Below are positions 1 to 48,419 of a stretch of 64,000 nucleotides of DNA, piece after piece. Each line of letters begins with the position of its first letter. Positions within the stretch are counted from its first letter, which is position 1. The notes beneath the pieces were generated by a model. The model had not been told where the DNA came from, searched no databases, and saw nothing but the letters and a program-made list of their open reading frames with translations. The translations under genes and the position numbers were made by a program. The DNA is from Cyanidioschyzon merolae (lineage: Eukaryota), in assembly GCA_000091205.1 (NCBI GenBank), contig AP006488.2, one strand, 5' to 3'.

Positions 1-49
1 GCAACTTTTTGTTCTGCACCATGCGAGTGGAACCTTTATCCCGGATTAT

Positions 50-1531
50 TTGGTGCAGGTGCCTCTGCGGTATTCGATTGCCAGCTTCTGTGCGACTCGT
101 TCTGTTCGTCGAGAACGTGACCTGGATGAGAAGTCTGGACTACCACAGTTGCGTGAAAACGTCTTTCTTGACCTGTGGTGCATGCATGAAAAGTGTATTC
201 AGGGGTATCATGTACGTCGCGAACACTTGGCGCCAGCAGGAGAAGCACCCCCGGCCGAGTTGTCGCTCGAGAGCTCCAATCATGACGAGAACTATAATGA
301 TCTTGATGACCCTGTTCATGATGATGATGATGATCGTCATCGTGCTGTTGGTGCTGCTGGTGACGATGATGATCATGGTGATGCTGCCGGAAACCGGGTG
401 CACGGGCGACCTGTGCTGGACGTTTCAGCTTCGCAGCCACTCGAGGGGTTGATGTCGACGTCGCCGCCGGTGCTGGTGACCCACACCCATACCCTGTACG
501 AGGCTTTTCGGAAGATCGCTCCGCAACTGAAGCAGCGAAGCTCAAGCTCCAGAAAGCACTCGGCCATTGGCGTGGGCAGCGCTGCCTCAAGCTCTCCGAG
601 TCCAAATGCTGGCGACGCTGCCTCAAGTTTGCCAGTCGATGTTCGAACACTTGCTCCAGAGAGCAATGGTGAAGCTGGCGCTGCTACGCCAAAGCGCGGA
701 GACTTTCCAGATCAGGCGACGAGCGCTGGAATGCCTTTGTTCACGGAGAAGCGCATTCTGGAACTTGAAGCGCGACTGACGCGTATAGAGCAGCTCCTGC
801 ATGAACTCATGGGCACGGTGAACCACACCAGGTCGGAGACAGCCTCGACGATGCACGGTCTTCTCCAACAGATTGCCAAAGAGCACCTCGTGCCGGCTCT
901 GATGCGCACCAGTGCCGAGACGGCAACATCGCTCTCTCGAGCGCTCGACGAGGCCATACGGGTTCGCTTCAAGCCGGTTACCGAACAGCTGGAACAAGCG
1001 TTACAGCGGACACTGCAATGGCCCACGTCAGGACCTGTGTCTTCTGCTGGAATGACGGCGACGACACTGGTGCCCACCGGGTACACGGCACCGACACCGA
1101 CACCACGAGAGCAGATCCTGCGATGGCTGCATCAACAACCGATGCCGGACGAGGATCGAGCGTTTCACGCAGCGCTCAATCTAAGTGATCTGGAGACGTT
1201 GGTCTGGCTCTGCAAGCAGTGCTCTCCGGAGCTTGTCTGCGAGAAGCTCTCCCAGCCTGTGCTCCTCTCTCTGGTCCAGCAGTTAGGTTTCGATTTGCGG
1301 ACCCATCTCGAATGCAAGTTATCGTATTTAGAGGAAGCGGTGCCGCTGATTCAACCGAAAGATCCGATTATCGCTCGGCATATGGAACCAACCATGCGTC
1401 AGCTTGTGCATAATCTAGATGAACAGGTTTTACATGCTGGTGAAGAGGTTGCACCTGCGCTTCGGACGCGGGCTCGTTTGCTGCGCAAGGTCGCCACGCT
1501 GTTGCTCCTTTCACCATCGCCAGCGAGTTAA
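50..1531 (+). CDS. Hypothetical protein with an Asp-rich acidic N-terminal region and a helical/coiled-coil C-terminal half. Possibly 5'-partial: the ORF opens with TTG 50 nt from the window edge and the first ATG is about 44 codons in.
   Basis: Uninterrupted 493-codon ORF with coding-like GC3 composition and no recognisable family motif. Two roughly 37-bp direct repeats follow its stop. Confidence 0.4.
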   Translation: MVQVPLRYSIASFCATRSVRRERDLDEKSGLPQLRENVFLDLWCMHEKCIQGYHVRREHLAPAGEAPPAELSLESSNHDENYNDLDDPVHDDDDDRHRAVGAAGDDDDHGDAAGNRVHGRPVLDVSASQPLEGLMSTSPPVLVTHTHTLYEAFRKIAPQLKQRSSSSRKHSAIGVGSAASSSPSPNAGDAASSLPVDVRTLAPESNGEAGAATPKRGDFPDQATSAGMPLFTEKRILELEARLTRIEQLLHELMGTVNHTRSETASTMHGLLQQIAKEHLVPALMRTSAETATSLSRALDEAIRVRFKPVTEQLEQALQRTLQWPTSGPVSSAGMTATTLVPTGYTAPTPTPREQILRWLHQQPMPDEDRAFHAALNLSDLETLVWLCKQCSPELVCEKLSQPVLLSLVQQLGFDLRTHLECKLSYLEEAVPLIQPKDPIIARHMEPTMRQLVHNLDEQVLHAGEEVAPALRTRARLLRKVATLLLLSPSPAS

Positions 1532-1535
1532 AGGA

Positions 1536-1660
1536 CTTGAGTGGAAGTACGCTTTAGGTCCGATCGTAAATTTCCTATTGCGCCTTGTTCTAATGTAAGT
1601 GACACAAAGGACTTGAGAAGAGGTACGGTTTAGGTCTGATCGGAGATATCCCGTGGCAGA
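1536..1660. repeat. Pair of roughly 37-bp direct repeats (aaggacttgag..gtacg.tttaggtc.gatcg) separated by about 45 bp, immediately 3' of the first ORF.
   Basis: Direct visual alignment of the two copies. Confidence 0.6.
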
Positions 1661-4600
1661 CTTGCCTTCGACAATATCCTGGAACGCATCGTGCGACGAG
1701 CGCCATACCGCGCACTACGATGTTCGCAGAGCAGTGGACCCTGGAACGCATGTACCAGTACTTCTTGATTCGGCTTTCTGTCTCGCTGGTATACGAGAAA
1801 AGGGAGTGTCATTCGCAGATCGAAGAAAGGTCGCGGAAAGACTTGATGGTACAACTGCGGCCTTGCGAAAGAAACACAGGCAAACTTCAAGTTACCAATT
1901 CAACGTTCAGCAGGTAGATAAGCAATGCTTATCGTAGCAGCTATTCGGCAAGAAAAGCAACCAAACGGGAATGCCCCGAACATTATCCGCATGACTGTTT
2001 CCTCGTCGATCCATGGTTGGCGGCACATTCCCTGCGAAAAACTGCACGAGAGGCAATAGGATATGGAGTTTCCGTATCTTAGATACGAACAAATATGAAG
2101 ACGCACGGAGGGTAAAGGAAATAACGTGCGTCCAGATTGGTTTCATACTAACTTGCAAACGCTCAGAAAAAGAGCGATGCTTGTTCATCTCACTCGTTGA
2201 GCCTGCATTCGAAGGAAATGCTAGACATGTCCATGGGAACTCAAGTAGCGGCAAACATGTGTTTCTAAATAAAAGACAAGCGACAGTGAAGACTGCATCA
2301 GTCCTAGCGTCAATGGGATCATATGGTTGCCTCTATATCGCCACACGGATCGGAATGTTCAACAAATTATGCTTCTTCATCGGAGCATTTCTTGGCTTCT
2401 TCTTTGCACAGCTTTCTCACCTGATCTCTGATAAGATGGTGTTTTATCGCGCCAAAGCAGTCGTGGAGCATGCAGCTGCTACTGATATTGAGCTGCTCTT
2501 CATGCCAGCCTATTCTATCCAGTTCAGTCGAGTCAAAAGCGTGTTCTCTGTTGTCGAACGCCATCATTTCGCGCAGAGATCAATGGACTGGTCGTTTGAA
2601 TCCGTGACACCTTTATTCGACATGTCGACCTCTGTTGTCATTAACCCTTAAATGCTCCGTTGTGTCTTTGCTCATGCACCAAAGAGAGTGCGATGCAACC
2701 GTGCTGCCCGTGGGCGTACTCGCGGCCGAGAAGGCAATGGGAATGTACTTGAGGCATCATTGGTACGTTCTAGAAATGACGAGTTTGTTTTCGAGTTTCC
2801 TCCCGGAGCTTCTTCATCCCGAAGGAGGCACCGAATATGGACTATACCGTGCACAACAATGCAATGCAGCTATGAAAATAAGAAGACGAAGAAAAGCATG
2901 AAATTTCAGAGGAAATGACGAACAGGAATCGGAACGAATACCTATCGCAATGGAAAGAACCGTTTGAATCCGTGTTCACGGCCACGGCACAATGACATAT
3001 CGACGACAAGAATCTTTCAGACTGAGAGCTATGCGACACCATCCAGGTTTGCGCAGCTTCCCTCGCCTTGATGCACGTCATCGAGCAACTTTTCACAAGA
3101 GATTACGACGCGTGACTGCCACCTGTCCACATTCTACCGGAATTCTAGGATCGTACTTTCGTACGAGTACGCAAACGATGCTCGGGGCAGAAGCTGTAGT
3201 ACAGCCTGACCGTAGGATCAGGGATTCGTAGACACGCTTCCCAGAGTACGAGTTCTTGCCGCCGCGCCACGTCAGTTAATCTCGCTTCTACAGCTCGGTG
3301 CCAAAAAGTAGCAAACGAACCTAAAAAACCACGGGCTGGTCAATTTCGAGCGCCTCATGAGTCGCACCCCGTGCGCATTCGAGTTTCATCTTACCTACCC
3401 AGAAAAGTCGACGTTGATGGAAGAAATTCATGGGGCGAAGATCATGGCGATTGATCAGCGAAATGGTCCAAGAGCAGAGGATGGTACATAGCTCTGGTGA
3501 GGTGTCCCAACGAGAGCAAGAGTCGCTTCAGAGCGTCCAGGCTAACCCTGTTGCGCTTCGTCTTGGGCCGTCGGGCGTTGTATCCTGTAAATAAGTGAAA
3601 CGTAACGCATGTCTTGCTTGCATCAAGCGCTGCGACGTCATTCTGAACAGATCCCACCGGAGCACGGCAGACATACTACCCGAATCCGAGTACGCTCGCC
3701 TCCTCAAGGTTCTGTCCGAACATGTCCCAGCAGGTGAGACTGAGACCCATCGCATTGCAGCAGATATGTCTATCGTATACGATATGGTCTTGTCGTGATC
3801 TTCGGCGCGTATCTGCATGCAGATATGAAGCAGTGAACCAGCACTGCGAAGGGCATTGGCGAAGCTCATGCAACGACTCGCGTTTACAGGCAGAAATTGG
3901 AAAGAGGCTGACATTGCAATGGAACCCCACCGAGTATCCATCCGCATGCACTTTGCCAAACCGAGGCCTGAGTCGAGCATCGAGATTCGTTGTCAGCCGT
4001 AAAAGGTAGATGAAGAGAAAGGCTTCACGGCGGACGTGGATCTCGGGTTGAAGGCCATCATGGTCGTCGCCGTACCTCTGGATCAAGAGGACAGCACCGA
4101 TGGCCGCAGCGGTAAGCAGAGGAAGCTGCTCAAAATCATCCAGGGCTCTATTGGATCCAGTGTCGGGCACAGTGGACGCCAGCAGGCGAGCCACCAGGTG
4201 AAATGGTGGTGTCAGGACGCCTCGCGACGCTCTGACTACGCGATCGATCCCAGCTGGATATGTTGTGTGCTTCCAACTCAGAGCGTACATGAGCGTCCAA
4301 ATAACGAGCGCCGATGATCTTCAGCGGATGTCCATGAGATCGTCCAGCGTTCGCCAACGGTTTCTATTGTCAAGCGGCATACATCTGCCATCTTGTTCCG
4401 TTCGCTGGAAAAATGGCATGTGGGACATGTCGTGTAGTATCACGGGAATCTGTTTCGTTGGATGAGCTGTTGCACACAAAGGCTGCATTGCCGCTCCTTC
4501 GACGAGTGCGTACGCTAACTGCATGAATCGATTCTCTCGCAGGCCCATCGATGTGTGCGGGACGCCATACCCACATATAATGGGTACGAGAATGCCCGTT

Positions 4601-5286: not shown

Positions 5287-7614
5287 TCAAGTCGTCGCTA
5301 CAGTGGCGCGGCGTAGATGCTCAAGGAATATTTCCATGGAAACATCATCGGTATAGATGAACTCGGCAGCGGCACTGCCGCTAAGTACATCGACATTACC
5401 GCTTGTGTGGGTAGCACTGGGGTTCAGTTTCGCGAGCAGAAAACGCGCTTGGGATCCGTACTGGTCCGACTCTACCCAGCGCGGATACGGGAAACGCGCT
5501 GCAATGCACGCTGCCGCATCTCGCCGCGGTATTTCCAGCAGCTCCGCCAAGTTTCGATAATTTGGCTGCAAATGATAGCCTGCTTTGCGCCACTGGGCAA
5601 CGGTGTCACCATAAAAGATAACGATGTAGAAGAAGGCATCGAGAAAGAGGACAACGTCGGGCCGAACGCTGGCCACATCGAGCAGCACCGGTGTAGGCGC
5701 GCTCTCCAACGAGTACTGAATCAGGCTGGGTTGAATCATGAGCATACCATCCGCGGTACTCACCCGACACAAATGCGAACGAAAGAACGCAGACTCATCG
5801 GGTGAGGTATTGAACGTTTGCAGTAACGCGCTCCGTCGCAAATGATACATGAACTGAGGATAGAATGACATGCTGGGGCCAAGTCGGAACGTCTCGGGCC
5901 GTTCCTTTTGGTAGTCGCCAAAGCGCGCACATAATCGAATCAAAAGCCGATCCAGCCATCGGAGGATATCGAAGGCCTCTTCGTTTTCCGTACGGAAAGC
6001 AGCGAGACGCGCCATGGTGACGGCGGCTGCCTCTTGATCGAAACCCGCTGCGAGGGTCACGAGGTCGTTGCCGTCGCACCAGCGCCCAGCATGCGTCGCT
6101 ACCCGCATTCGGAACTCGCCCGAGCTGTGTTGGTAAGTTGTTCGAAACTGTATGTACCGATAGTGATTCTCGGGAATCCCATTCGACTGCTGGTTCACAA
6201 CGTCGAAGAAAACGCTGAGGCTCGTGTCCGGCGAGATGCTCCCAATTCGCCATGCACAGGTACCCCCAATACCAATTTCCGTGTCCGTGGAGACGCTGGG
6301 TCCTTTCTTCTCCAGGGAAGCCGAGGGTCCGATCACGCCGGCAATCTTGAACTCCCGAGAGCAGTCGACCTCGAGTGTTGCCAAGAAATGGCGCTTAAGA
6401 TGTCCATTTTCATCGCATTCAAAGAACTTCTCGAACGAACGCTTGAACATGTCGTGCTCAAAGGATTCAGCCATTACGAAAACGCCTCCGGTGCGATCCA
6501 CGCACGCTTTCATCTCATAGAAACCGACCTGATCCAGGGAACATCCGAATACGGAGAGCGCGTGCCCGGCGTTCACCAGGCGCGTGGCTACCTCATCGTA
6601 GTGCTTGAGCGCCTTTTTCAAATGCGGTGCATTGTCTTTCTCAATATCGATATGAGAGCGCAGCTCTTCATCTAGCTTTGGACCAACGATGGTGCCGGGA
6701 CCCTCGGTGCAAGGCCCGCCTTGCAACAGGCAAATATGTGCTCCGTAGCCCCTGTAGGTGCATTCCAGGAGAGCCGCAGCCGCTGCGAGTGCGGCACCCG
6801 TACAGCGCTTTGGCCGTTCGTCGGCCGGCACTGGCCAGGCGTCACGCTGAAGGCCCTCCAGAAGCGTTGCCATCATATACTCGCATTCTTGTATGGGTTG
6901 GAGAAAGCGGTCTGGAGGTGCCAGTTTTGAATGAGCGCCCGCTGCTGTCGCATCAGCACGCTGTTTGGCGGCAGCGCTAGCTCCAGCGCCAGCAGCTGCA
7001 GAGGCGCCGCCCAGTCCAAGCAACGGCTGCAGTGACGCTGCATCATAGGATTTGTTCCCTCGAAGGATGTACGATCGAAAGCCTTCAGTGAACCCAATCT
7101 CATGAACCTGCAGGTGCTGCCCGTACGTAATCAGGCCCACTGTTGTTCCTGGCGGTAGCAGCGAAAGCGCCTTGAGGAGGTACTCCTTCACCACCGTGAA
7201 CTGTTTCTCGGGCACTGTCGTGTCCAGTACAAAGAGAAATGCCGGCGGTGGGGCCGGTGGCCTATTCAAACGATACTCTACAACTGTGTATTCCGGAATG
7301 AGCTCAGATGGCAGCTGGTTATCCGGGATGCTCGCATACTGTGGAGGGAGCTGGTTGCGCTGAAACGTAAACGGACAAACCCACATCCGCGCGTTGATGT
7401 CCACGCTACAGTACGGGTTGAGCACCGTACCCTCCCGCGACGTCACCGGCGGGTACGGCAGCGGAGGGGGCATGTTTGGTAACGGTCGCAACGGTGTAAA
7501 AAGACACGCAAACGGAAGCACGCACTGGCTAGCTGCGGCCTTGGTCGTTGGCCAGAACAGCCACGTCCAGCGCGTGCCGTCCACTTCCTCCAGTTGCGCG
7601 AAGTCTATAGACAT
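5287..7614 (-). CDS. SEC23: COPII coat GTPase-activating protein Sec23
   Basis: 775-aa ORF with a true ATG. The N-terminus 'MSIDFAQLEEVDGTRWTWLFWPTTKAAASQCVLPFACLFTPL...ARMWVCPFTFQRNQLPPQY' aligns to the Sec23 N-terminus and Zn-finger region. Length matches Sec23 (about 765 aa). Confidence 0.9.
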   Translation of the reverse strand: MSIDFAQLEEVDGTRWTWLFWPTTKAAASQCVLPFACLFTPLRPLPNMPPPLPYPPVTSREGTVLNPYCSVDINARMWVCPFTFQRNQLPPQYASIPDNQLPSELIPEYTVVEYRLNRPPAPPPAFLFVLDTTVPEKQFTVVKEYLLKALSLLPPGTTVGLITYGQHLQVHEIGFTEGFRSYILRGNKSYDAASLQPLLGLGGASAAAGAGASAAAKQRADATAAGAHSKLAPPDRFLQPIQECEYMMATLLEGLQRDAWPVPADERPKRCTGAALAAAAALLECTYRGYGAHICLLQGGPCTEGPGTIVGPKLDEELRSHIDIEKDNAPHLKKALKHYDEVATRLVNAGHALSVFGCSLDQVGFYEMKACVDRTGGVFVMAESFEHDMFKRSFEKFFECDENGHLKRHFLATLEVDCSREFKIAGVIGPSASLEKKGPSVSTDTEIGIGGTCAWRIGSISPDTSLSVFFDVVNQQSNGIPENHYRYIQFRTTYQHSSGEFRMRVATHAGRWCDGNDLVTLAAGFDQEAAAVTMARLAAFRTENEEAFDILRWLDRLLIRLCARFGDYQKERPETFRLGPSMSFYPQFMYHLRRSALLQTFNTSPDESAFFRSHLCRVSTADGMLMIQPSLIQYSLESAPTPVLLDVASVRPDVVLFLDAFFYIVIFYGDTVAQWRKAGYHLQPNYRNLAELLEIPRRDAAACIAARFPYPRWVESDQYGSQARFLLAKLNPSATHTSGNVDVLSGSAAAEFIYTDDVSMEIFLEHLRRATVATT

Positions 7615-9796
7615 GACCTCCAGAACGTCTCAAACTACGCACTGTTTACCAGGTAGGGTCAAACGCCCCCACGATCAGGCCCGAAAGACTCTGCCTAAGC
7701 GCTCGTGTTCGGCTCTGCGCTCTCCCGAACGTCGAGCGAATGACCTGTTGCGTAACTGCTGCCGCGGCGGCGGCAGCAGAGGCGAATGATGAGACCCAGC
7801 GCTTACCGAGTGCGCACTATAGGAAAAGGAACAGAAACGAACCTCTAACTAGCAAAGAGATCACATTTTCTTTCCTTCTCTATGATAAACATTAAAAGGG
7901 GGAACATGTTTTCGATATTTTAGAACGTTTACGTTATCGGCGGTAGGTTCCGCGAGCCGGACAAGACTGTCTGGGCTAGTGTATCACGCTCGTCCCGGTG
8001 GCGGGTGCTGTAGTGCGGTCTGAGCTGCAACTCGTCCAAACTGCAGTTTATTCTGGGACTTGATAGATTAGATCTCTTCCGGGTGTCGCCCTCGTTGCGG
8101 TGGACTCCACGTATATCGCTTTGCGCTGTCGCGTGCAGTGGGTTTGTCTGCGGAGCTTGCTGGCTCCGAGAATGATCATATACTCCGACTCTGTGTCAGG
8201 TGAAGCATTCCTCGATCCGACGCCCTCAGTAGTATGGCAACGCCGTTCTGTCTCTGTTATGCATCGGCATCAGCGGATTAGAGGGTAAGGCGGGTGCATC
8301 AACGCATGCACCCGACGAATGACAGGAAGCACGAGACGAGTAGTACATCCGAAAGGAAGTATACGTAATGGAATCTGGAGTTAGAATGCAGCATGATGGA
8401 TGCTTTCGCTGAATCCGATACCCATGCATAGCGCAACCTCGGATCCATTGTCAATGTGAGTGTTTTTCCATCGGAAAAATGAAGCACGTAGCTCTATCGT
8501 ACAAATTGTAACGATGTTCAAGTCGTAGAAAAGTACATTGTTTGTCCTCAATTGTGTTTCAACCTTCACACTAATGTATTCAAGTGCTTTTTCGCGCGTA
8601 ATAGCTGTCCCATCCAAAGCGGTTTCGGTTTTTATATTGAAAAAGGAAAGTTACGGAAGGGGAATTGGAGGATCCTGGGCGCCAGTGTCGCCGGCAGCCC
8701 GAAAAAACGAAGAACAGTGCCAAGTCCAAAGGAACAAGAGAAGAAGAAGAAGAAGAAGAAGTAAAAGCGGGAGGCCCTACGTCAAAGGCTACACAAAAGA
8801 CGACGGTACGACGAGATGGCGGTGAAAGCCTGTCTTCTTCAACATACCAAGGATCCGTACAGGGAAAACGTTCGAGAGGCAATCTGGAACCGTGTCGAGC
8901 CGAACTCAAGCGGTGTCCGTGACGCTTCCCAAGGAATGGCGCATTTCCTAAGGGAATGGTATCACGACGTTACGGACACCAAAACAGTCGAGGTTCTGGA
9001 AGAAATTTTCAACAAAACCTTTATTCATCACCGGATGCTTGGCACCGGGGAAACGTCTAGGTGAAATGAGCGAGTTCATGCCCTCCACAAAATTTACGCC
9101 GAATTCCGCTTCGACGGTACTCGATACAGGGGGGGATTCGAATATTTACACCTACGGGGCGATGAAGTACCTCACCAGTCTAAAGAACCATTTAACAATG
9201 AACCCCAAAAACTTCGATCGCCAGCATGAAAAGGAGATCGAATTCATCGACGAGACGACATCACTCAGGGGCATGAACGAGGATTCCGTCATCCGTACGG
9301 TTATACAAGAGCATCGTGCTGTCTTGGGACTGGCGAATCCAGCAGAAAAGATATCAGAGTGGAAAGAAGATAAGGAACGATACTATCGCCTCATCCTACG
9401 GTATTTCGTGTTTTTTGGCCGAGAACTCGAACGCAAGGCAGAGATGAAGCTGAGTGGGGAAAAAATGAAGAATGGGAGAGACGAAAGGCTGCGCTTCTGG
9501 GTAAGAGCTTAAACATCGTTCCGTTGTGAAACATCAAGTCACATTTTAAGACTATCGACTGCAGAGTCCTTCATGACATCATGAAGGAGATCTGTCCGGA
9601 GTTCGATGAACGGAAGACAGAGTTCACCGCTGAAAACCGGGAGACGTACTTGAAGAGTATCCTCAATTTCAAACGTCTCAAAGTAAGCAAGAAAAAGAAA
9701 TTCACTGGGATGATCGAAACCGATGGAGTATCTATATGTGTACACGATCGGCGGTTGAAGGTGGATCGTCCAGTCCTGCCTTCAGCCTCGCCCGTG

Positions 9797-10106
9797 ACGA
9801 AGCATGAAGGTGAGAAGGAGGCGGATCCTGCGATGCAGGAGTTGGAGGATAACGACCTTGGCGTTGACGTGGCGAAGCATGAAGAAAAGGAGAAGGCTGT
9901 TCCTGTGACTCAGGAGATAGAGCATAACGACCTTGTCGTTGACGTGACGAAGGATGAAGAAAAGAAAGAGGCGGATCCTGTGATGCAGGAGATGGAGGGG
10001 AACGACCTTGTCGTAGGCGCGGCGAATCATGAAGATGAGAAGGAAGCGAATCCTACCACGCAGAAAGCGCATGAGAACGACTTTGTAGTTGGCGCGGACC
10101 CCGGAA
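9797..10106 (+). repeat. Coding minisatellite inside Fanzor-like copy A. About 60 bp (20-aa) unit '[24 protein letters not shown]', roughly 4 tandem copies directly N-terminal to RuvC-I. The unit is a degenerate duplication of the RuvC-I strand.
   Basis: Protein-level tandem repeats 'NDLGVDVAKHEE / NDLVVDVTKDEE / NDLVVGAANHED / NDFVVGADPGSTN'. Copy B has 1 unit and copy D has 3. Confidence 0.7.
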
Positions 10107-10929
10107 GCACAAATATCATAACCATCGCTGCTCCCAAGCTCGCGGAAGATGGTATTGACGGGAACTTGCGTCAGAAATATATGCGTCTTCTGCGGCTCTC
10201 GAGAGCGAGATACTATCGACAATCGGGAATCATGAATGCGAGGAAGAAAATCGTTACGTGGAATGTAGGAATGAAAGAGCACCTGGAAGCTCTGAGTGAG
10301 GTGACGAGCCGAGGAGCGGACTTTCGAGCTTTTCGGTGATTCATGGAAGTTCGCGTTGCGCATTGGGATGCGCTATGGGAGGAGTATACCAAGCCCCGGT
10401 GGGCTCGTCTGCGTATGAATCGATACGGTGGGAAGCAGCGGGCGTTCGCGAATTTTTCAATCAGCCGAGCGCCTTGAAGGAGGATCAAAGTCAGAGGCTC
10501 GTAGTAGCGTATGGGGCACGGAGCTGGAAGACCAAAAAAGGGTGTACGCCAGCTCCAACGACAAGGGTGTACAAGGAGTGCGCACGGCGTTTCGTTACAA
10601 TACCTGTAGATGAGTTTCGAACATTGTATACACACCATGAACTGGGTTGTACACTTCAGCGAGTGGAGATGGAAAAGTGCCACAGGAGCCCTGAGGAAAT
10701 AGCAAAATACGGACCGTTGACGGAGGAGCAAATGGAAAGGAGGGTGAACGTTCGTGGATTACTTGCACTAGTAAGTACAACCAGTGATGGCAAGAAACGT
10801 ATGGAGTTTGTGAATCGTGACTTTAATGCCGCAATCAATGTACGGAGATGTGCGGTGCTGGAGAATAGACTTCCAGAGTCGACAAGAGTGAACTTTGTTG
10901 GACAACCTCTCAAAGTCGAATTATATGAG

Positions 10930-11075
10930 AAAAAGTTGGAAGCAGTCGTAGGTGGCCGGTCGAGAAACGGCGGGAAGGCGTCTGCACATCAGCTGGACAC
11001 GTTATGTCTAGGGCGCGGTTTTCCCGCCACTACGGTACACTGTCGGCGACGTCGTTCGACTTTCGAACGGCGTTT
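10930..11075 (+). ncRNA. Candidate omegaRNA/fRNA-like 3' scaffold of copy A. It is conserved with copy D through a terminal hairpin (cgttcg-acttt-cgaacg, extendable to about 10 bp) and diverges immediately after.
   Basis: A:D nucleotide identity across the C-terminal coding and 3' region ends at about 11075, and a palindrome sits at the boundary. By analogy to TnpB/Fanzor, whose guide RNA derives from the element's 3' end. No expression data. Confidence 0.3.
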
Positions 11076-11086
11076 GGAGGCGCGGC

Positions 11087-11098
11087 TTTGGCGGGAAA
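11087..11098 (+). promoter_or_regulatory. Consensus E2F site TTTGGCGGGAAA about 70 bp upstream of the MCM5 ATG, in the unique flank between the element A 3' end and MCM5.
   Basis: Exact match to the canonical E2F motif TTTSSCGC. MCM5 is a classical E2F target in animals and plants. Confidence 0.35.
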
Positions 11099-11167
11099 CG
11101 CTTGGTGGGCGCTATCTGCTCCAAACGCTCTGTGTTCAACGTCATACGGTTTACGTTTTGACGCTTC

Positions 11168-13474
11168 ATGGATTGGCACGCGGCTCCAGTTTACTATACT
11201 GATCAGGGTGTTGGAGTACCAGGTGCTGAAGAGCAAAGTGGAAATGTTTCTATCCAAGAACGGCGAATCATTGAGTTCTTGCTGCAGTTTCGCTCAGCTC
11301 CAAACGTGTTCCCTTATCGCGATCAGCTTGTGCGCCAGCTGCACGCTCGCAAGCACTGGATTCAGATCAAGATAGAGGACGTGTACGCCTTTGATGAAGA
11401 ACTGGCTGGGTATATTCGCCAAGCGCCTAACGAATGGATAGAGCGCTTGGAGCAAGCAGTCGATCGGGTGGTACGTCGGCTGCGGCTGCCGCTGGACCAC
11501 GAGATAGGCGGTGTTTCGGTGCAGGTGTTGCTGCAGTCCCAGGAGAACGCATTTCCGTTGAGGGAACTCCAGTCCGATCAGCTGGGGCGCCTTGTGCGTG
11601 TACAAGGCATTGTTATTTCCGCTTCAAAAGTACGCGCGAAAGCGCAGGTCGTCTGGTTACGTTGCCAGCACTGTGACTACCGAAAGATGATACGTGCTTC
11701 AGTGGGATTCGGTGGTTTCCAGGTGCCCCGCCAATGCGATCGTGTGACGGAAATGCGTTGCCCTCTGGACTCGTATGAGGTGATGCCGCATGAAAGCGTG
11801 TTTGTTGATCACCAGACAGTGAAGCTGCAGGAGCTGCCCGAGTCGGTACCCACTGGGGAGGTCCCTCGATCGCTCCTGCTCGTTCTCGAGCGGAATCTGA
11901 TTGATAGAGTAGCTCCTGGTGAGCGCGTCAGCGCTGTCGGTGTTTACTCGACATACGCCAGCACTCGTGATCGGAGCAGTCGTTCTGTGGCAGCTAACAT
12001 TGCCACAAGGGCTAGCGGACCAGACCTTGTAGCAGCGGTGAGAACTCCGTATATCCGAGTCCTCGGCATTGATGCTACGCAGGAAAGACGTGACCGTCAT
12101 CCAGGCTTTACCCCGGAGGAAGAGGAAGCCATGCGCAGCTTGAGTCGACTGCCAAACGTGTACGAAGTCTTGGCGGCGAGCATTGCCCCAGAAATCTGGG
12201 GTCTCTCCGATCCAAAACGTGCGGTATTGTGCCAACTATTCGGTGGCTCTCGTAAGACGCTTCCAGACGGAATGAGAATTCGAGGCGATATCAATGTGCT
12301 TCTTCTGGGCGATCCGTCTACCGCAAAATCACAGCTGCTCAAGTTTGCGGAGAAGGTCGCACCGGTCTCCGTGTATACGAGCGGCAAAGGCTCTTCCGCC
12401 GCAGGGCTGACCGCCTCTGTTATTCGAGACGCCACGCATGGTGAATTCCATCTCGAAGGCGGTGCGATGGTGCTAGCTGACGGTGGTATCGTCTGCATTG
12501 ACGAGTTTGACAAGATGCGCCTCGCAGACCGTGTCGCCATCCACGAGGCCATGGAGCAGCAGACCATTTCCATCGCCAAGGCCGGGATCACCACCGTGCT
12601 GAACTCGCGCACGGCAGTTTTGGCGGCAGCGAATCCTCTTTTTGGTTCGTTTGACGATACGCGCACTGTAGCGGATCAGATGGAGTTTGCATCCACGATT
12701 CTTTCTCGTTTCGACCTCATATTTCTGGTCCGCGACGTGCGCAATGATGAACGTGATCGAACGATTGCCCGACATGTACTAGCGCTGCATCAACGGGGCC
12801 ACAGTCTGCGCCCGCAGGGCTCTGGACTCGATTCGGCTGGTGATATCAGCGATTCAGGAATGCTGTCTTTGTCACCGAACGGTGCTAGCGAGTTCACCTC
12901 CAGCCAGATGCTGAACGCCGTTGGTCTTGTCCCGATCGACAAGTTGCGTCGCTATGTCGCCTACGCCAGACGCCGTTGCCGACCACGCCTCTCCGCAGAG
13001 GCTGCTGACCTACTACGAACAGCGTACGTGGCAGTACGCCAGGAGCTGCGCGATCGTACGGCAGATGGACCGACTCCTGTACCGATTGCGGTACGCCAGC
13101 TGGAATCCCTCATCCGCTTGACCGAGGCGTTGGCCAAGATGCGCCTGAGCGATCTTGCATCAGCTGCTGATGCCGAAGAGGCACTGCGGCTTTTCCGAGT
13201 CGCCACCATGGCCGCAGCGCACGCAGGTGCGCTACCTCCTGGTGCCTTTGAGGGTACCCTGAGCGGGGAATTTCTCATTGAGGTTCAAGCAGCCGAAGCA
13301 GCAATTCGGCGGCGCATCGCCATTGGTTCCATGCTCGCTTTGAACCGGCTGGTACGTGAACTCACCCAGCAGCATCTGTCTGCAGCGGCGACCCAGCGGG
13401 CGATCCAGATCATGCTCGGGCGACAGGAGCTCGAATGGCGTCGACAACGGACAGTACTGTGCCGTTTACGGTGA
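11168..13474 (+). CDS. MCM5: DNA replication licensing factor MCM5
   Basis: 768 aa with a true ATG. Walker A 'GDINVLLLGDPSTAKSQLLKF'. 'IDEFDKM' and the arginine-finger region. 'AIHEAMEQQTISIAKAGITTVLNSRTAVLAAANP' nearly identical to MCM5. N-terminus 'PVYYTD...IIEFLLQFR' aligns to the MCM5 N-terminus. Confidence 0.9.
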   Translation: MDWHAAPVYYTDQGVGVPGAEEQSGNVSIQERRIIEFLLQFRSAPNVFPYRDQLVRQLHARKHWIQIKIEDVYAFDEELAGYIRQAPNEWIERLEQAVDRVVRRLRLPLDHEIGGVSVQVLLQSQENAFPLRELQSDQLGRLVRVQGIVISASKVRAKAQVVWLRCQHCDYRKMIRASVGFGGFQVPRQCDRVTEMRCPLDSYEVMPHESVFVDHQTVKLQELPESVPTGEVPRSLLLVLERNLIDRVAPGERVSAVGVYSTYASTRDRSSRSVAANIATRASGPDLVAAVRTPYIRVLGIDATQERRDRHPGFTPEEEEAMRSLSRLPNVYEVLAASIAPEIWGLSDPKRAVLCQLFGGSRKTLPDGMRIRGDINVLLLGDPSTAKSQLLKFAEKVAPVSVYTSGKGSSAAGLTASVIRDATHGEFHLEGGAMVLADGGIVCIDEFDKMRLADRVAIHEAMEQQTISIAKAGITTVLNSRTAVLAAANPLFGSFDDTRTVADQMEFASTILSRFDLIFLVRDVRNDERDRTIARHVLALHQRGHSLRPQGSGLDSAGDISDSGMLSLSPNGASEFTSSQMLNAVGLVPIDKLRRYVAYARRRCRPRLSAEAADLLRTAYVAVRQELRDRTADGPTPVPIAVRQLESLIRLTEALAKMRLSDLASAADAEEALRLFRVATMAAAHAGALPPGAFEGTLSGEFLIEVQAAEAAIRRRIAIGSMLALNRLVRELTQQHLSAAATQRAIQIMLGRQELEWRRQRTVLCRLR

Positions 13475-24520: not shown

Positions 24521-25225
24521 CTAGATCGATTCGATCTCTCGCTCGAGCTCTTCGATGATGGGTTCGTTCCGCACGAACCAGGACTTGAGGCCCTCGAATA
24601 ACTGAAAGCGTTTGGGTTTTGGCTTCTGCTTTGGCGTCTCGTCCGTGTCTTGGGCGACGACCTTTTGGAAAGAGACTTTGGGCGCTTGCTGGATTTTGCG
24701 TTCATGCTCTTTGATGCGCTGCTCTGCAGTCTTGATACCGTCCGTGTTGCGGAGCACGTCTGCGTACGCATCGGCATCGAGGGAGGCGATCTCCGCTTTG
24801 AGCGCATCGAGCTCTTTGCGCAGTGCGTCAGCGCTCATCGTTTCGATGTTTTTCGAGTTCGTGCTCCCGACTTGCTCTCTGTTCACTTCGGGAGTGGCCA
24901 TATCATGCGCGAACGAGCGCCACATCGAGAGCGAGTCATCCCTCTCTTTACTTTCAGCAATCTGCAGTTGCCGGTGCACAAGTAGGATGCGGAGCTTGAG
25001 TTGCTGCACACGAGCAGCCCTTTCCTCTGCTGACAAGGACGGGGTTTTCTTTGGGGTCTTCCCCTCGGTTTTCGGTTTGCGGGGTGCCGAACCTTGCGGT
25101 TCCGCCCCGGCGGCAGCGGCTCGCAGCGGGCTCCGGGCTCTAGCACCCGCGCGCCGACACGTGGCCACCCGCTGCACTGCCATACCCGTAGACTTGCGTT
25201 GGATCCCTGTAGCGCTCACAAACAT
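24521..25225 (-). CDS. Hypothetical coiled-coil protein (Lys/Glu-rich)
   Basis: 234-codon ORF with a true ATG and heptad-like charged helical sequence. No family assignment possible. Confidence 0.35.
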   Translation of the reverse strand: MFVSATGIQRKSTGMAVQRVATCRRAGARARSPLRAAAAGAEPQGSAPRKPKTEGKTPKKTPSLSAEERAARVQQLKLRILLVHRQLQIAESKERDDSLSMWRSFAHDMATPEVNREQVGSTNSKNIETMSADALRKELDALKAEIASLDADAYADVLRNTDGIKTAEQRIKEHERKIQQAPKVSFQKVVAQDTDETPKQKPKPKRFQLFEGLKSWFVRNEPIIEELEREIESI

Positions 25226-25534
25226 AGTTCTATACCCCGATTAATTTCTTTTCAAGCGAAGGTATTAAACAAGAAACAAAATGGTGCTAGCCGCAGTTGA
25301 ACGAAACGACGTTCGCAAAGCGACACAAGGCCAATGCTTGTGCGCACTTCTCCGAGTCCATTTTCAAACGGATATCTTCCGGATGCGTGCAAGGGAAACG
25401 CAATGCGCGGCACGCACGCATGCATGCATGCGGCGATCGCCGGACAGCAATCTGCTCAGATTGCCAACGCACGTGCGTGTCCGTTTGCCGCCAAACACTG
25501 GAATCGGCGCTGTTGCTGCGGGCATTCGCGACGC

Positions 25535-30555: not shown

Positions 30556-30632
30556 GAGGATGCAAACGGTAGGGGGAAGTGCTGGAACTTTTCCCTCAGT
30601 AGGGATGTTTATGACTTTTTGAATCGAAGTAT

Positions 30633-30985
30633 GGGAATGCTATGTGCAGTGCAAAGATCCGGGCTCATAGATTCGTAGATCGTTGAATGCTATGTGCAGT
30701 GCAAAGATCCGGGCTCATAGATTCGTAGATCGTTGAATGCTATGTGCAGTGCAAAGATCCGGGCTCATAGATTCGTAGATCGTTGAATGCTATGTGCAGT
30801 GCAAAGATCCGGGCTCATAGATTCGTAGATGGTTGAATGCTATGTGCAGTGCAAAGATCCGGGCTCATAGATTCGTAGATGGTTGAATGCTATGTGCAGT
30901 GCAAAGATCCGGGCTCATAGATTCTTAGATGGTTGAATGCTATGTGCAGTGCAAAGATCCGGGCTCATAGATTCTTAGATGGTTC
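30633..30985. repeat. 50-bp tandem repeat, 7 copies (tgaatgctatgtgcagtgcaaagatccgggctcatagattcgtagatcgt), with terminal variants. It lies 80-430 bp upstream of the GatB ATG.
   Basis: Direct reading shows near-identical units. The last three carry 'ggt' or 'ctta' variants. Confidence 0.9.
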
Positions 30986-33567
30986 AAGGATTTACGATTG
31001 TGTCTGCGGACAAGCGCTTTCGACGCGTTGCTGCTGGCAGCGTTGACCTGGTCGGCATCAACATGCTTGGCGACACCCTCGAACAAGCGCTGGTAAAACT
31101 TCCGAACGCATGATCCAAGTGAATGCGTACATGGCTTTGCGGCGCTCTGTTCCTTCGATATACGGTCCTGGAATCAGGTATTCTTCCAGTTTTCGATTAT
31201 TCCGTTTCACGAGGACTCGTGAGGTACAGGTATTCGCGACGCGGGATGGACGAGGAAACATATTCAGCATGGTCTTTTGAGCGCTATTTCACGAGCTTGT
31301 TCAGAAATCTTCTCGACATTCCCTTTTTGCATCAGCGATCCAGTTTGGGAGAATTTCGTGCGTCTCTCTGTGGTGATCGATGAAACCGCATTTCACATGA
31401 GCAGCTGGATATCTCTAAAAGGATACGAGCCCAGAGATTTCCGTGGCTTTTGATTGTGCGGAAACGGGTCCTGGGTACGGGCTTGAATCATCCCAGCGAT
31501 CATATTAAGTGACGCGTCCGATACGATTTGCATAAAGGACGCGGATACGGATGAACGAATTCCGACTTGCTTTCCAGTTCGACAGTTCTTTTCGAAAATT
31601 CTTCCATGATAGGTAGCATCTCGTTTTAAAATGCTGTATTGAAGCGAATAGCATGCGGCTTCGCGTGCCTTGCAGAGAGCACTTTTCGAAAGGCTAGCCC
31701 CGAACAAGCTGGTGTTCGAGGGGTACAGCCCCAGGCGCTGCTCCTGGAGATTTCATCAAGGCGCGTCTTCTGTGGCCGTCATGGGCATCAGCCAAACGAT
31801 GCAGCAAGCGTCCACGCGTCGTAGAGCATCCAATGGAGGTTAAGGATAGGTGAACACATCGGTATACCTGCATTCAGTCACGGGTTATCAATACGAGGCG
31901 TGCGCCGAACTTGTATACGTAGACGACGACATTGCCTGGGAAAACGCAGATCGCAACGAATGTCCTTTTCCCGTGATATGCATCGGCAATAGTTGAGAAT
32001 TCCTAAAATCGACACGTGAATCTTTGCACCAACAGCTTCCGACTGCTCGTTACAGACCGAGATGAGAACTGGAGACCGCTGTATCTAAATTATGAGGTAC
32101 GAGAGAAAAATGAAAAAGCTGAAGACAAAGAACGACATGGATGATTTTGATCACTGCAGGAAGATGCTCAAACATCACTGTATCCGTATGAGCCAAGATG
32201 CGCTGTTCCCATTTCATTCTGAAGTCGGTTTAGCATTGCGGAGAGCGCATGAGACACGCTCTATATGTGGATGATCGCTCGATCAAGAGCAGGGTCTTTT
32301 ATGAAAAACTTGCACCATCTTTGTGGAATACCTTTGCACGCGAATTGTGCAGAGCATTTTGTTTTGCGTTCATCGGTATGATTCCGCTCTTCCTCGATGG
32401 AACACCATTTCAGAATATTCAGATCCTGAGCGCATGTCCGGAGATTTTATTATATTCTTCTGCAGACCAGAAGCTGTTGTACTTCAAAGGCTTTCGGAGA
32501 GATTCCGAACCCTTCAAACGAGCACGGGACGGCGCCGACTGCCGTTCGTCTGCGAATACCCATGCAAAACGCAACCCGAGAAACGCGCCAACAACCTGCA
32601 CGCGACGGAACCGCAGTTCGACGCCGCAGCGAACTGCACCATCTCAAGGCAGTGCAGGCGAGCCCTGCTCTGAGCAAATCAAACCTGGAATCCCGAGCCG
32701 AAGCCCGCATTGGTATAGCAAAGCCGCTCTGTCTCCGGTTTGCATCCGCAGCGGCGCTATTGGTGCTACCGCAGACGCTCACGGCGGGCTCGTCGCACGA
32801 TAGCGTGTAAAACATAACCACTGCATCCGAGCCAAGTACATGGAGTCTAAATTGAATATAGGTGGAACAGTGGATGCTTTTCTAATCGCTGATATTCAGG
32901 GCCCAATCGGGGATGCCTGGTCCATGTAAACTGTCCGTCAAGCGAGGAATCCCACCGACAAGCCGCATAATAAGAGGCGACAATCGAGCTGCACTGCCAC
33001 TGAACGTACGAAAGTGCGCTAAAAACTCCAGTGCGCATGTCGTAGCCTTCAAAGCCGCTTGATGCGTCGATTCTGCGGGAATCCGCCGGGTCACCGCGCG
33101 CTTTCAGGACTCGGGACACGTATGACCCGTACCAGTCGATGGGTTGCTCATCAGCGCTCATCCACATCGGCCTAGAATAGACAAGTGTACCTTGACTACG
33201 CTCAGCACAACACGGCTTGCCTGAAAAAGTCAGAAGCGGCACTGGTCCTGGTACGTGCTCGCTGTGTGCTCTTGAGCGACCACCAGTCATGCAACTGCGC
33301 AAAGTATGCGTACGGAGCGCAGCGAATCCATTCAGCTTGTGCTGTAAACTAGATGCGTCCAGAGCTTCGCGCCACACGAAGCCTTTTCCGGGCCAAAACC
33401 AGCAACGATGCCATCTCGTGTTGCATGCGATAAACTGGGGCGTGCTGCTTCACAGCGCGTACAAATCGAGTTCGTGTATACGCCGGTCTACCTGCAAGCG
33501 AACAGCAGCTGACCAAGCACGCCCTACCCTGTGCCGTACGGGATTCGCATTATTCGCAGGCATTCGG

Positions 33568-38627: not shown

Positions 38628-38851
38628 CACGAACACTTCTCGAAGTACAAGTGCTCAAAGCGCTTTCGAACCCAGACCCCCAAAAAGGACGATACCACAA
38701 ACGTGGTCGCTATTCGCAAACCGCCCAGAAACGTCACAGGCAACGAGCGTTCAGGTCTTTCTGGCAGGTTTCCGTACCGCGCAGGGACAACCGTCGTAAC
38801 ACCTTGCGCAGCGCGCCGCATATCGAGGCGATTGCACCTGCGCGCGCGAAA

Positions 38852-39200
38852 ACGTATACACGGATACGTATACACGGATACGTATACACGGATACGTATA
38901 CACGGATACGTATACACGGATACGTATACACGGATACGTATACACGCATACGTATACACGGATAAGTATACACGGATACGTATACACGGATACGTATACA
39001 CGGATAAGTATACACGGATACGTATACACGGATACGTATACACGGATAAGTATACACGGATAAGTATACACGGATAAGTATACACGGATACGTATACACG
39101 GATACGTATACACGGATACGTATACACGGATAAGTATACACGGATACGTATACACGGATAAGTATACACGCATACGTACACACGGATATGCATATATACA
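38852..39200. repeat. 14-bp minisatellite (ACGGATACGTATAC with AAG/GCA variants), about 25 copies, 200 bp upstream of the Rab1 ATG.
   Basis: Direct reading. It generates the multi-frame artifact ORFs 38627-39269. Confidence 0.9.
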
Positions 39201-42200
39201 CATCAAATGCCCACAGATCGAGAAGCGGCACAGGGGCGCTGTTGGAAACCGAAGAGAGCGCCTACCCATGGGCTATAGAGCGTGGCGTGCGCGATGACAT
39301 GCTGCCGGCCTGCGACGGCATGCTGGTTGAGTTTCATTGACAAGGTGGAATGTAGGAAAGCAACATTATATCCGAGAGGACGTATGGGTCATGGAACTTG
39401 ACGGTGGCGTCATGAATGATATGCGCTTTCTCGAATGTCGATGTTGATCGTGCAATTTAGGATTCTTCGTGTGTGCACACGTTCAGTTCAGTAAACGACA
39501 ACATAGATCGTTGGTGCAAACTCATCTGTAGAAGCAGCGATGGCGACGATCTTCTTCATGATGCGCGTACGGCGTATGCGATTCGACGTCAGTGCATCCG
39601 CGTGAATATCAAATGGAACGGGGCGCGATCACAGGGGCTCGCAGACGAGTCTTTGGGCACGGTATGCTTCCAGCGTCAATCATAAAGGACTTTGGGGTTT
39701 GCTTTTCCGCTTTCATGTATCCGGTTTTCGATAGGCTGGCCTTTGTTATTCCACCGGTGCTGCGCTCAGTAGTTGTGGGATGATGATAGCAATATTCAAG
39801 TCAAGATTTGGTAGTTTTCTGTTGTTTCATGCGCATGCGAAGCACAAGCAAAAGTTGCAACCTAGGCATCGCTTGCCCGATAAAGCTCGTTTACATAAAG
39901 CCTCGGAGCGCACATCGCAGGCGCGGCACATGGCTGTGTTCAAGCGTTCCAGTACGTCCACTGAACCTGCTCGTCCTCTGAGTACCGCCCTGTGGCGCTT
40001 GTAGGCCTGCTTCATCGCTCAGGGCATGGCCTTGGCGTGTACACGGAAACGATATTAAACGCTCTCGCCCGTTGGTGCCCCCGAAGCGTGCTGTATCCTT
40101 CGTTGGCGATCATCTTTTCGGTTATCTCCGCGGCAAGTACGCTGTCCGCTGCACGCGCAAGCGCATGTTGCTCCAACCGAACAGTTACCATGGGCTCTGT
40201 GATCGAGCTTCATTTTGCTGCATACGCTGCTGGTAAAAAGTGGCGACGGGCGCAAGCGGTGTCGTGTCCGCATCTTGCACCCGCCAGCAACCATGCGGCT
40301 ACGGCTTCTGAGGCGCCCCTCAGTTCTGTCCGCCATCTGTTAGAACCAGTCTCCCGTTTGTTCTCCTCTGCTGCGACGAAGATGAAACACTCGTGAGTAG
40401 AGCATATGACTATTGGTAAAGGTCGCAGGGTTCCGAACTCGTTGCTCCAGAGCGTCAACGGTTACCACACGAGAACTGAACTGCTGTTCGGATCGCACCG
40501 AAACGTGTCGCGAGCGGTTCGCTCGCCACAGGTCCAGCACGATGCATATCGCTCTGTGGCACTCGTTCGGCAGGTGACGCGACATTTTTGATCATCCTTC
40601 GTCTGTAGATCTCCTATTCCGAGCCTATTTGCCAATGAGATTAAAGTTGGTCACAAAGTTCATAAGACGTTCGCCTTCGATGTCGATGGATACCGCTAAG
40701 CGATCGAACGCGATGCACGGCATGACGGCTCGTTGCCATGATGCAAGCCTGTCGTTGCTGCCTTGCTTGTTCGAATGAGCTTCTTTCTTTGCCGTCTGGC
40801 GGTTTCTCTTCCTACCCTTCATAGATAATCGCTCGTTCGTGAGATCCTCCTGCTTCTGAGCCCTACATGGGCGCCCGTTATGACGCCTGTGCACCGGTCG
40901 CGTCAACGTTCTGCGCGCGCCCTCTGTGGCTTCCAAGTCCGCAACAGGTCGCTGGATCTATCAGGGTCCAAATACCTGCTGGCGGAAGACCCCGAATTGA
41001 GGCTCCTGAGCTTTGTAAAAAAGTGTGCAATGGAGACGACCTCTCTCTCCAAGTGAGCAGCAGCCTCGGCGTATATAGAAGATTCTGGTTTGCATCACGG
41101 ATCCGGCACCATTCATAATGCTTTCTGACGGCACTTGAATGGGTATCGCACGGGATTGCACTCAGAAGGACGTGCACTATGGAATGCTCTGAGTCCTGCT
41201 ATTGTCTGTATGCCTCTGTATTGTTTCGCGCTGAACAATACTTGTGATGCACGACTTTTTTGGCAGAACTGAATCGATCTGAATTGCTTTCTTATCGACC
41301 ATTTCATCAATGAACGGCAATGAGTCACACCATATGCACCCCGCAGTGCTGCCTGCCTTGATGCATGCCATTCGGACAAAGGGTCGGACAAGGACGCCTC
41401 CCCGGGGAAGCAGTATCAACTCGTCCGAGCACCTCTGCGAGACGCTCGGATGCGCGATGCGGACACACGGTCTGCATTGCTGACGGACGACGAAGCCCCA
41501 GCGGTATTGACGGGAGTTATGCAGTCCATCGTATCTCAATTGTTGCTTTGGTACAGTGGCGCTCTAACAAGGACCGAGTTCGTTCATCGTAATCGACCTC
41601 ACAACAGGGTCACCAGTGCGGTCCAGTCGATGCCGCACTCTCTGGACACGAATCGATCTGCAGGATGGGGTGTTGGCGCTCGTACGGCTTCTTCTCGGGC
41701 ACTGCTTTGAGGAGCAATGCCTGCCGTGCGTACCGTCTTGCCGAGTCCGTCTGCTGGCAACCTGGAGCTTGTGATTGCCGCATCGCCAGATGCGTCACCC
41801 GGTGTACGCCTGTCCAACGGATATTTTTACGGAAGCAGCCTAAAGCACCGGGATCGCCGACACCGACGCCCCCTTCCCTCTTGTATCCCCCCGCTTGGCG
41901 TCCCGGGCCCGCTGGACGCGCTCAACGCCAACAAAAGCCGACCCGTGCTCCCTGCTGCAGTGTACTCCGGGCGACGAGTCCGTGAACCGCAACCAAGTCT
42001 CGGTTTAAAAGCACTGCATCACCAACGGCTCCTGCCTCGCCGTGTGTTCCATGAACGCCTCGCGAGACGCTGAGAGGTATCGCAACTCGTTTCGTGCATG
42101 CGCAGAATCTTTCCTCCGCGTTCAAGCGCTTCAGTCTACGAGCTCGCCAGCGCAGCACAAACCGCCAGAGATGCTCGGTACCGTCCACTCAATCCCCAGG

Positions 42201-48250: not shown

Positions 48251-48419
48251 GCGCTCCAGGCGGAAGGCCCCGTGAGCCGGACGAGTCTTCTTGGTAATTG
48301 CGTCATGGCCCCCCCAGTGGCAGGTGCTTTAGTGATATCTGACCAACTCATCCCCGAAGCGGTTTATTCCGGCATTAAGGGTGCTCAGGCAGCGTCTGCA
48401 CGTCGCCCTGGTCGCAGCG

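Follow-up and report, generated by a model that had tools for sequence, protein, structure and literature searches.

Decayed copies of the Fanzor1 element CMe-1A point their 3' ends at nearby host gene starts in Cyanidioschyzon merolae

The window analysed here, a 64,000-nucleotide stretch of contig AP006488.2 of Cyanidioschyzon merolae (assembly GCA_000091205.1), carries a single repeat in three long copies and one fragment, as a comparison of the window with itself revealed. Judged by their sequence, these repeats are decayed copies of CMe-1A, a known Fanzor1 (eukaryotic TnpB) family of C. merolae. Across the genome, the family survives almost only where its right end faces the 5' end of a host gene from very close by, and the three long copies of the window follow the same arrangement. 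Copy boundaries were obtained from the self-comparison, then from blastn mapping to the published 3169-bp CMe-1A consensus and an all-against-all repeat mask. Gene models are long open reading frames (ORFs), since the C. merolae genome is intron-poor. Each spacer in the window runs from the published 3' terminus up to the start codon of the RefSeq model. The genes and elements are the following.

5287-7614, minus strand: Sec23 coding sequence (CDS), divergent neighbour of MCM5; recognised by Pfam, byte-identical to the RefSeq protein of C. merolae 10D
7799-8473, minus strand: TE-N2_CMe-like module (consensus 1-663), in the opposite orientation to the Fanzor part of copy A
8488-11072, plus strand: copy A of CMe-1A (consensus 740-3169), a pseudogene with at least 4 frame changes and 4 in-frame stops
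11050-11072, plus strand: 3'-terminal hairpin CGTCGTTCGA-CTT-TCGAACGGCG, ending at the published element terminus
11073-11167, plus strand: spacer between copy A and the MCM5 ATG, 95 bp, co-oriented
11168-13474, plus strand: MCM5 CDS, 768 aa; recognised by Pfam, 100% identity at full coverage to the C. merolae 10D protein
42418-45393, minus strand: aminopeptidase N (PepN, an M1 aminopeptidase) CDS; recognised by Pfam, RefSeq 991 aa, byte-identical to 10D
between PepN and copy B, minus strand: spacer between copy B and the PepN ATG, 230 bp, co-oriented
45624-48660, minus strand: full-length copy B of CMe-1A (consensus 4-3169), a pseudogene interrupted by a frameshift and 5 in-frame stops
48674-49228, plus strand: fragment C, a 5' fragment of CMe-1A (consensus 683-1238) head-to-head with copy B and devoid of a 3' end
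50095-51216, minus strand: 1-acylglycerol-3-phosphate O-acyltransferase (LPAAT) CDS; recognised by Pfam, RefSeq 373 aa, byte-identical to 10D
between LPAAT and copy D, minus strand: spacer between copy D and the LPAAT ATG, 101 bp, co-oriented
51318-53832, minus strand: copy D of CMe-1A (consensus 800-3169), a pseudogene

CMe-1A was described as a Fanzor1 family by Bao & Jurka 2013, with its consensus in the supplement (PMC3627910). In tblastn, the published CMe-1 Fanzor1 protein (734 aa) matches the three copies at 61-86% identity over residues 1-734; at the DNA level, identity to the consensus is ~83% for copy B and 78-87% for A and D. An exhaustive search yielded 2214 representatives at E up to 0.001, and a 45-sequence family profile built from them matches the Fanzor1 structures of Parasitella (9CF0, 1e-21), Spizellomyces (8GKH, 1e-15) and Guillardia (9CER, 2e-11). 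The first-pass annotation of this window had called the copies 'Fanzor-like', and the matches to the CMe-1A DNA consensus, to the CMe-1 protein and between profile and structures agree on that identity. Pfam PF07282 (Cas12f1-like TNB domain) is matched by 6 of the 45 family members. Pfam returned no match for the broken ORFs and intact relatives, a PDB search with single ORFs (phmmer) and with a 10-sequence profile returned none either, and an AlphaFold2 model computed from a shallow 10-sequence alignment reached a mean predicted local distance difference test score (pLDDT) of 40.

In the 45-sequence alignment, two residues of the RuvC triad, D398 (GxDPG) and E569 (vDEFRT), are invariant, and the third, D636, is nearly so, inside an otherwise invariant R-D-x-N-A-A-x-N motif (RDxNAAxNI). 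Copy A retains GADPG, VDEF and NRDFNAA, and copies B and D read PVGKFRT, a DEF>GKF replacement at the RuvC-II glutamate. With all three ORFs broken and this glutamate lost in B and D, the window copies are members of the family but not active nucleases. No intact CMe-1 copy was present among the 87 loci examined.

The copies display some further traits. B and D are 94% identical over their 3' 1 kb (45648-46672 and 51339-52358) and 78% identical over the remainder, which, together with their common DEF>GKF replacement, looks like gene conversion between two like-oriented copies separated by 5.7 kb. Just upstream of the RuvC-I motif, a 75-bp unit encoding an acidic 25-aa repeat varies in number, with four units in A (9793-10092), three in D (52287-52511), one in B (46601-46675) and one in the published consensus (2117-2196); some relatives in the databases, among them P0001 and P0004, carry several more. 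Copy B and fragment C are only 13 bp apart, head-to-head (48660-48674), and at two other loci (L041, L085) two 3' halves stand head-to-head with both 3' ends facing outward at genes. The TE-N2_CMe-like module at 7799-8473, whose far end is 184 bp from the Sec23 ATG, lies inverted beside copy A and so behaves like an independent element, not like the CMe-1A 5' end; a lone 115-bp fragment of it is found at 39348-39463.

The spacers depend on the start codons of the host genes. Those of LPAAT, PepN and Sec23 are the RefSeq ones, since the proteins are byte-identical to their 10D RefSeq counterparts; together with the MCM5 match, this identity assigns the window to strain 10D. The MCM5 start is secure because similarity to the orthologous Cyanidiococcus locus begins exactly at the ATG (11168), with no similarity upstream of it. 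In the models of alternative gene callers, PepN is 83 aa and LPAAT 91 aa shorter at the N terminus, and with those downstream starts the spacers of copies B and D would be ~479 bp and ~374 bp. Beside MCM5, synteny with Cyanidiococcus yangmingshanensis (window 7615-11167 against 9442-10000 of locus L078) keeps the MCM5-symplekin pair and ends exactly upstream of MCM5: C. merolae has Sec23 on that side, Cyanidiococcus a zf-CCCH gene. Copy A sits at this break.

From the sequence alone, the first-pass annotation had placed the 3' ends at about 11075 (A), 51295 (D) and 45595 (B), at 93, about 80 and about 200 bp from the ATGs of MCM5, LPAAT and PepN. Pfam agrees with the three gene names, the published termini fall at 11072, 51318 and 45624, and the arrangement itself, three of three copies just 5' of a host start and co-oriented with it, is confirmed with spacers of 95, 101 and 230 bp. 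The accompanying statement that three out of three is unlikely by chance is not valid on its own, for the per-site null is 0.36-0.5 and the orientation of copy A is automatic: its intergenic region is divergent (Sec23 on minus, MCM5 on plus), so that either orientation faces a start. Taken alone, the window is therefore not significant, and chance or artefact, from a gene-dense genome, ORF-based gene calling or redundant metagenome contigs, had to be considered at the scale of the genome.

Loci were gathered by a metagenome scan (75) and from nine protein look-ups (ten more). At checked loci, host proteins are 99% identical to 10D, or cluster with 10D proteins at 90% or more, and they represent at least six chromosomes; given the 99% identity, the metagenome contigs are those of wild C. 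merolae. Sites with flanks at least 88% identical were merged, 3' ends were set by the published consensus, repeats were masked all-against-all, and genes were called by ORF length and codon log-odds. The resulting 54 distinct sites sample about one third of the roughly 150 copies in the species. A co-oriented host start is found within 600 bp of the element 3' end in 37/54, within 300 bp in 31/54 and within 60 bp in 12/54; the median distance is 106 bp, the shortest 13 bp. Only 3/54 sites have a gene 3' end in the 600-bp range. Leaving out the window, 37 of 51 sites have a called gene within 1 kb of the 3' end, 34 of them as a co-oriented start and 3 as a gene 3' end (p = 1e-7). The genome-wide comparison proposed with the first-pass annotation thus supports promoter-proximal, co-oriented placement: elsewhere the copies are not randomly positioned or oriented, and in the window the exact termini are 95-230 bp from annotated starts.

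Random insertion was simulated into element-free intergenic DNA of the same contigs. Under this null, 36% of insertions would face a gene start, with a median distance of 700 bp, and 9% would have one within 300 bp. In the corresponding pass over 51 sites, 44 (86%) face a start (p = 2e-13) and 32 (63%) do so within 300 bp (p = 3e-21); the observed median spacer is 106-142 bp, depending on the 3'-end setting. These departures from the null render chance or artefact very improbable, as do the de-duplication of sites by flank identity and downstream genes that carry Pfam domains, have 10D RefSeq counterparts of equal length and are distributed over at least six chromosomes. In favour of chance or artefact, 14/54 sites are ambiguous, as no gene is called in the 1 kb next to the 3' end, and the gene caller missed at least one small gene, that of ribosomal S21 at L089. 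At L085, L087, L088 and L089, Joint Genome Institute (JGI) calls place a same-strand Pfam gene directly downstream, respectively Kri1, an ABC transporter, a phosphatidylinositol 4-kinase (PI4-kinase) and ribosomal S21. The PI4-kinase (L088, 11264-14701) matches named species only at 53-54% and gave no match to a 10D protein, though for neighbouring proteins the identity to 10D is 99%. Either 10D lacks the model or has a different one, or the word pre-filter dropped the match.

The intergenic regions occupied by CMe-1A are not a random draw. Occupied and free regions number 28:23 for divergent, 16:29 for tandem and 7:54 for convergent gene pairs, an enrichment in promoter-containing regions (divergent versus convergent, Fisher p = 1e-6). 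This is what the main competing explanation would predict, in which integration is orientation-neutral and directed to open, nucleosome-poor promoter DNA, a habit common among transposons, and the copies that survive in so compact a genome are those that spare short core promoters. Co-orientation would then arise mostly from position between divergent genes. Thirty sites have both neighbours typed: 17 are divergent, 8 tandem co-oriented, 3 tandem anti-oriented and 2 convergent. Divergent regions constitute 15% of free intergenic bases yet more than half of the occupied regions, and much of the co-orientation is therefore occupancy of promoter-only regions. Free divergent regions have a median length of 499 bp, so that any copy inserted there is near a start, and the 5' side of the elements also faces gene starts at 20 of the 30 typed sites. 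Copy A would itself fit this account, as it lies in a divergent region and its 95-bp spacer retains an exact TTTGGCGGGAAA at 11087-11098, 15 bp past the element and 70-81 bp short of the ATG, which we read from its sequence as an E2F-type site. A one-mismatch copy of TTTGGCGGGAAA occurs at 25484-25495, about 260 bp upstream of the minus-strand ORF 24521-25225.

Promoter targeting predicts, however, that the two ends of the element behave alike, and they do not. The 5' end comes no closer than 176 bp to a gene start, with a median spacer of 381 bp (n = 13), and the 3' spacers are much shorter, at a median of 106 bp (Mann-Whitney p = 4e-5); at tandem sites the co-oriented copies outnumber the anti-oriented ones 8:3. 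The very short spacers found at housekeeping genes provide a second difficulty, for there they leave no room for an intact host core promoter. Four such genes are the following.

spacer 13 bp: DDX56-like DEAD-box helicase, XP_005536936.1
spacer 19 bp: E2 ubiquitin-conjugating enzyme, XP_005539079.1
spacer 30 bp: cysteinyl-tRNA synthetase (CysRS), XP_005536061.1
spacer 54 bp: UFD1, XP_005536445.1

The annotated starts of these genes agree with their proteins. All four have the same length as the 10D RefSeq models, their Pfam domains begin between residues 12 and 33, and a start at the next in-frame methionine, which comes no earlier than residue 64, would cut into the domain. Upstream of the E2 gene, 12 of the 19 spacer bases recur in the flank of a second copy, and about 7 nt are then left. 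With starts 13-54 bp away, the promoter and probably the leader of these four genes would be element DNA. Tight junctions are also seen elsewhere. In L013 (10462-10515), a UbiE-like methyltransferase starts 52 bp from the element end, and in the gene model P0113 the C-terminal part of the Fanzor ORF is fused with a downstream UbiE-like methyltransferase. The frame must be open across the junction in some strain; this fusion is probably a gene-calling artefact, yet the junction is tight. For the asymmetry of the ends and the four short spacers together, we consider promoter targeting with survivorship somewhat unlikely.

We tentatively favour another explanation, at a little under an even chance: outward transcription from the end bearing the guide RNA (ωRNA) would make co-oriented, promoter-proximal copies tolerable or useful. 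Every TnpB/Fanzor element would need outward transcription to copy its guide from flanking DNA, and the right (3') end is the side that would carry the ωRNA and direct this transcription. Integration itself would probably be biased to open promoter DNA. Copies that land there in the same direction as the gene would be tolerated and could become its promoter or leader, while those pointing into gene 3' ends would produce antisense RNA and be lost. The first-pass annotation had offered three explanations, namely a target preference for 5' untranslated region (UTR) or promoter sequence, selection for copies whose 3' end supplies promoter or 5' UTR function, and read-through co-transcription. Among them the second gains most, from the four starts at 13-54 bp.

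Several observations weigh against outward transcription as the cause. The tandem sample is small and falls to 6:3 without the two window sites, and the 5' boundary used in comparing the two ends comes from the repeat mask and is less exact than the 3' boundary. At MCM5, the host promoter may be intact, since the 95-bp spacer keeps its own E2F-type site, and MCM5 of Cyanidiococcus has no element upstream (the upstream DNA is not alignable and the neighbour differs). Copies that are 5'-truncated and keep their 3' end are beside genes in 5/11 cases, against 32/43 for longer copies; preferential retention of such truncated copies beside genes, which we had considered, is not supported by these counts. 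Sequence support for a structured RNA at the element 3' end is weak, and extra constraint on this end was rejected, as identity is flat along the element at 0.80-0.89.

The published 3' end of the element, ...GAAAGGCG, coincides with the point where copies stop being similar, and the CMe-1A stop codon (in copy A, the consensus-frame stop at 11009-11011) stands 59 nt before the terminus, leaving a hairpin-rich tail of 59 nt. Fold z-scores of the three 3' ends are -2.9 (last 116 nt of copy A), -1.4 and -3.0. In a hand-drawn structure of four hairpins, 78% of cells are paired, compared with 41-53% when the structure is slid, and there is little covariation. RNAalifold, applied to the 3' 230 nt and to a trimmed realignment, gave essentially no consensus structure, and an Rfam search of the element 3' end gave no match. 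At 25 distinct 3' junctions in the loci (window flanks 11073-11090, 51300-51317 and 45606-45623), the bases past the published terminus are non-random, with T in 23/25 and T in 21/25 at the first two positions, G at +4 in 18/25 and G at +7 in 17/25; several copies also show pairing between them and the bases that precede the terminal hairpin. For these two reasons the element probably extends 7-16 nt beyond the published end. The repeat mask and the long terminal stem likewise suggest an extension, of about 5-15 nt, with 3' ends at about 11077 (A), 51304 (D) and 45615 (B). Alternatively, the same bases may be a TTTGTTG-like target. At the opposite end, a T-rich tract directly precedes consensus position 1, with T at -2 in 16/17 and at -4 in 14/17 of the long-form and TE-N2 copies counted (for instance window 8474-8503 and 48664-48693).

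These junctions bear on a third explanation, orientation-specific integration near transcription starts by an HUH-type (Helitron- or IS200/IS605-like) or other strand-specific machinery, acting for example on single-stranded DNA exposed by transcription or replication, or on a strand-specific target motif. Neither terminal inverted repeats (TIRs) nor target duplications are known for the family (PMC3627910), the 3' terminus bears a long hairpin, and the flanks are non-random on both sides (T at -2 in 16/17; T, T, n, G after the 3' end in 23, 21 and 18 of 25), resembling the TTTT targets of the Fanzor1-carrying Helitron2 of Chlamydomonas. No transposase was found in or near any copy, though, and the flank motif may be unrecognised element sequence, given its pairing 5' of the hairpin in several copies. 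TTTT and AAAA are about equally frequent (77 and 72) over the 200 bp that precede element-free genes. As promoter T-tracts are thus not strand-asymmetric, a T-tract target alone would not give co-orientation, and it was rejected as its cause within 200 bp of the ATG. Nor were empty sites found with which to define the termini: no locus joins both flanks of any site without the element. We regard strand-specific integration as quite unlikely.

Outward transcription also admits a stronger form, in which the guide-RNA unit of CMe-1A would be the promoter and 5' leader of dozens of genes, whose messenger RNAs would begin with an ωRNA scaffold. We judge this unlikely. The 'guide' would then be the leader of the gene itself or, where the spacer does not exceed 20 bp, its start codon, and a transposon-host transcriptional dependency, possibly with RNA-guided regulation, would preserve a dead transposon family. 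The first-pass annotation had likewise suggested that the guide flank is the 5' UTR or start region of the host gene. This holds insofar as the flank is promoter or leader DNA; in the window, the first 15-20 nt, which would be the guide by analogy with SpuFz1 (PMC10432273), lie 75-230 bp upstream of the ATG and not at the start codon.

Fanzor and TnpB have been studied as RNA-guided nucleases, and their effect on neighbouring genes in natural eukaryotic hosts is hardly known. Here, a repeat-poor genome of about 16.5 Mb holds roughly 150 mostly dead Fanzor1 copies whose guide-RNA end abuts gene starts, in some cases 13-30 bp from the start codon of an essential gene. If transcripts start in the element, this would explain why a compact genome keeps about 0.4 Mb of decayed transposon, and would link the transcription that reads out the ωRNA to host gene expression. 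If only promoter targeting and survivorship are at work, the arrangement is still, in the literature searched, the first placement rule for a Fanzor-carrying element. C. merolae is genetically tractable by homologous recombination, and public RNA-seq data exist for it.

Three tandem-repeat arrays of the window are unrelated to these findings: a 14-bp unit repeated about 24 times (38777-39266), a 50-bp unit repeated 7 times (30585-31037), and ACACCG-type 12/18-bp repeats (61241-61893) which fall inside ORFs 61379-61990 and 61758-62276.

Compared with known systems, the window copies are closest to the published CMe-1A itself, being 78-87% identical over consensus 4-3169, sharing the 734-aa Fanzor1 protein, lacking TIRs and having in common the 5' TE-N2_CMe module of 635-663 bp. 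They differ in that the element appears to run about 7-16 nt past the published 3' end. Bao & Jurka 2013 give no account of copy position relative to host genes, and left target-site duplications and transposon class undetermined (PMC3627910). The Fanzor1 OMEGA system of Spizellomyces punctatus (Saito et al. 2023, PMC10432273; 8GKH) has a homologous protein (profile match 1e-15), and CMe-1A likewise ends in a short hairpin-rich non-coding tail (59 nt). Spu-1 has inverted repeats of 30-33 bp and TA duplications, and CMe-1A has neither. All CMe-1A copies sampled are pseudogenes, and the CMe-1A ωRNA is putative. The searched passages of Saito et al. 2023 (PMC10432273) describe no placement beside host gene starts, and those of the Replitron and Auxenochlorella papers do not mention it.

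TnpB-carrying IS200/IS605 elements and the Helitron2-borne Fanzor1 of Chlamydomonas (PMC3627910) resemble CMe-1A in their absence of TIRs, their terminal or subterminal hairpins, a strand-specific insertion logic and a T-rich 5' junction. Helitron and Helitron2 elements also have a 3' hairpin, and the CMe-1A 3' flank begins with T in 23/25 copies. The 5'-TC...CTRR-3' termini of Helitrons are not those of CMe-1A, which begins with CGATGAC... and ends with ...AAGGCG, and no Y1/HUH or Rep/helicase ORF was present in any element examined.

With promoter-targeting transposons, CMe-1A has in common its enrichment in 5' intergenic DNA and its depletion between gene 3' ends. P elements, Tf1 and mPing or Mutator-type elements all target promoters; to our knowledge, none presents a comparably strict asymmetry between its two ends, and the CMe-1A 3' end is much closer to the gene. 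Bacterial insertion sequences (IS) with outward-facing promoters and eukaryotic promoters derived from transposable elements, such as solo long terminal repeats (LTRs), provide the precedent for element DNA that supplies the promoter or leader of the gene downstream. CMe-1A would differ from them in that the donor is the guide-RNA end of a Fanzor element, serving dozens of genes in a very small eukaryotic genome. The family is known; neither Bao & Jurka 2013 (PMC3627910) nor the other literature searched mentions where its copies lie relative to host genes. This placement belongs with promoter-proximal transposon accumulation and transposon-derived promoters, and its interest comes from the link to the guide-RNA end of a Fanzor element.

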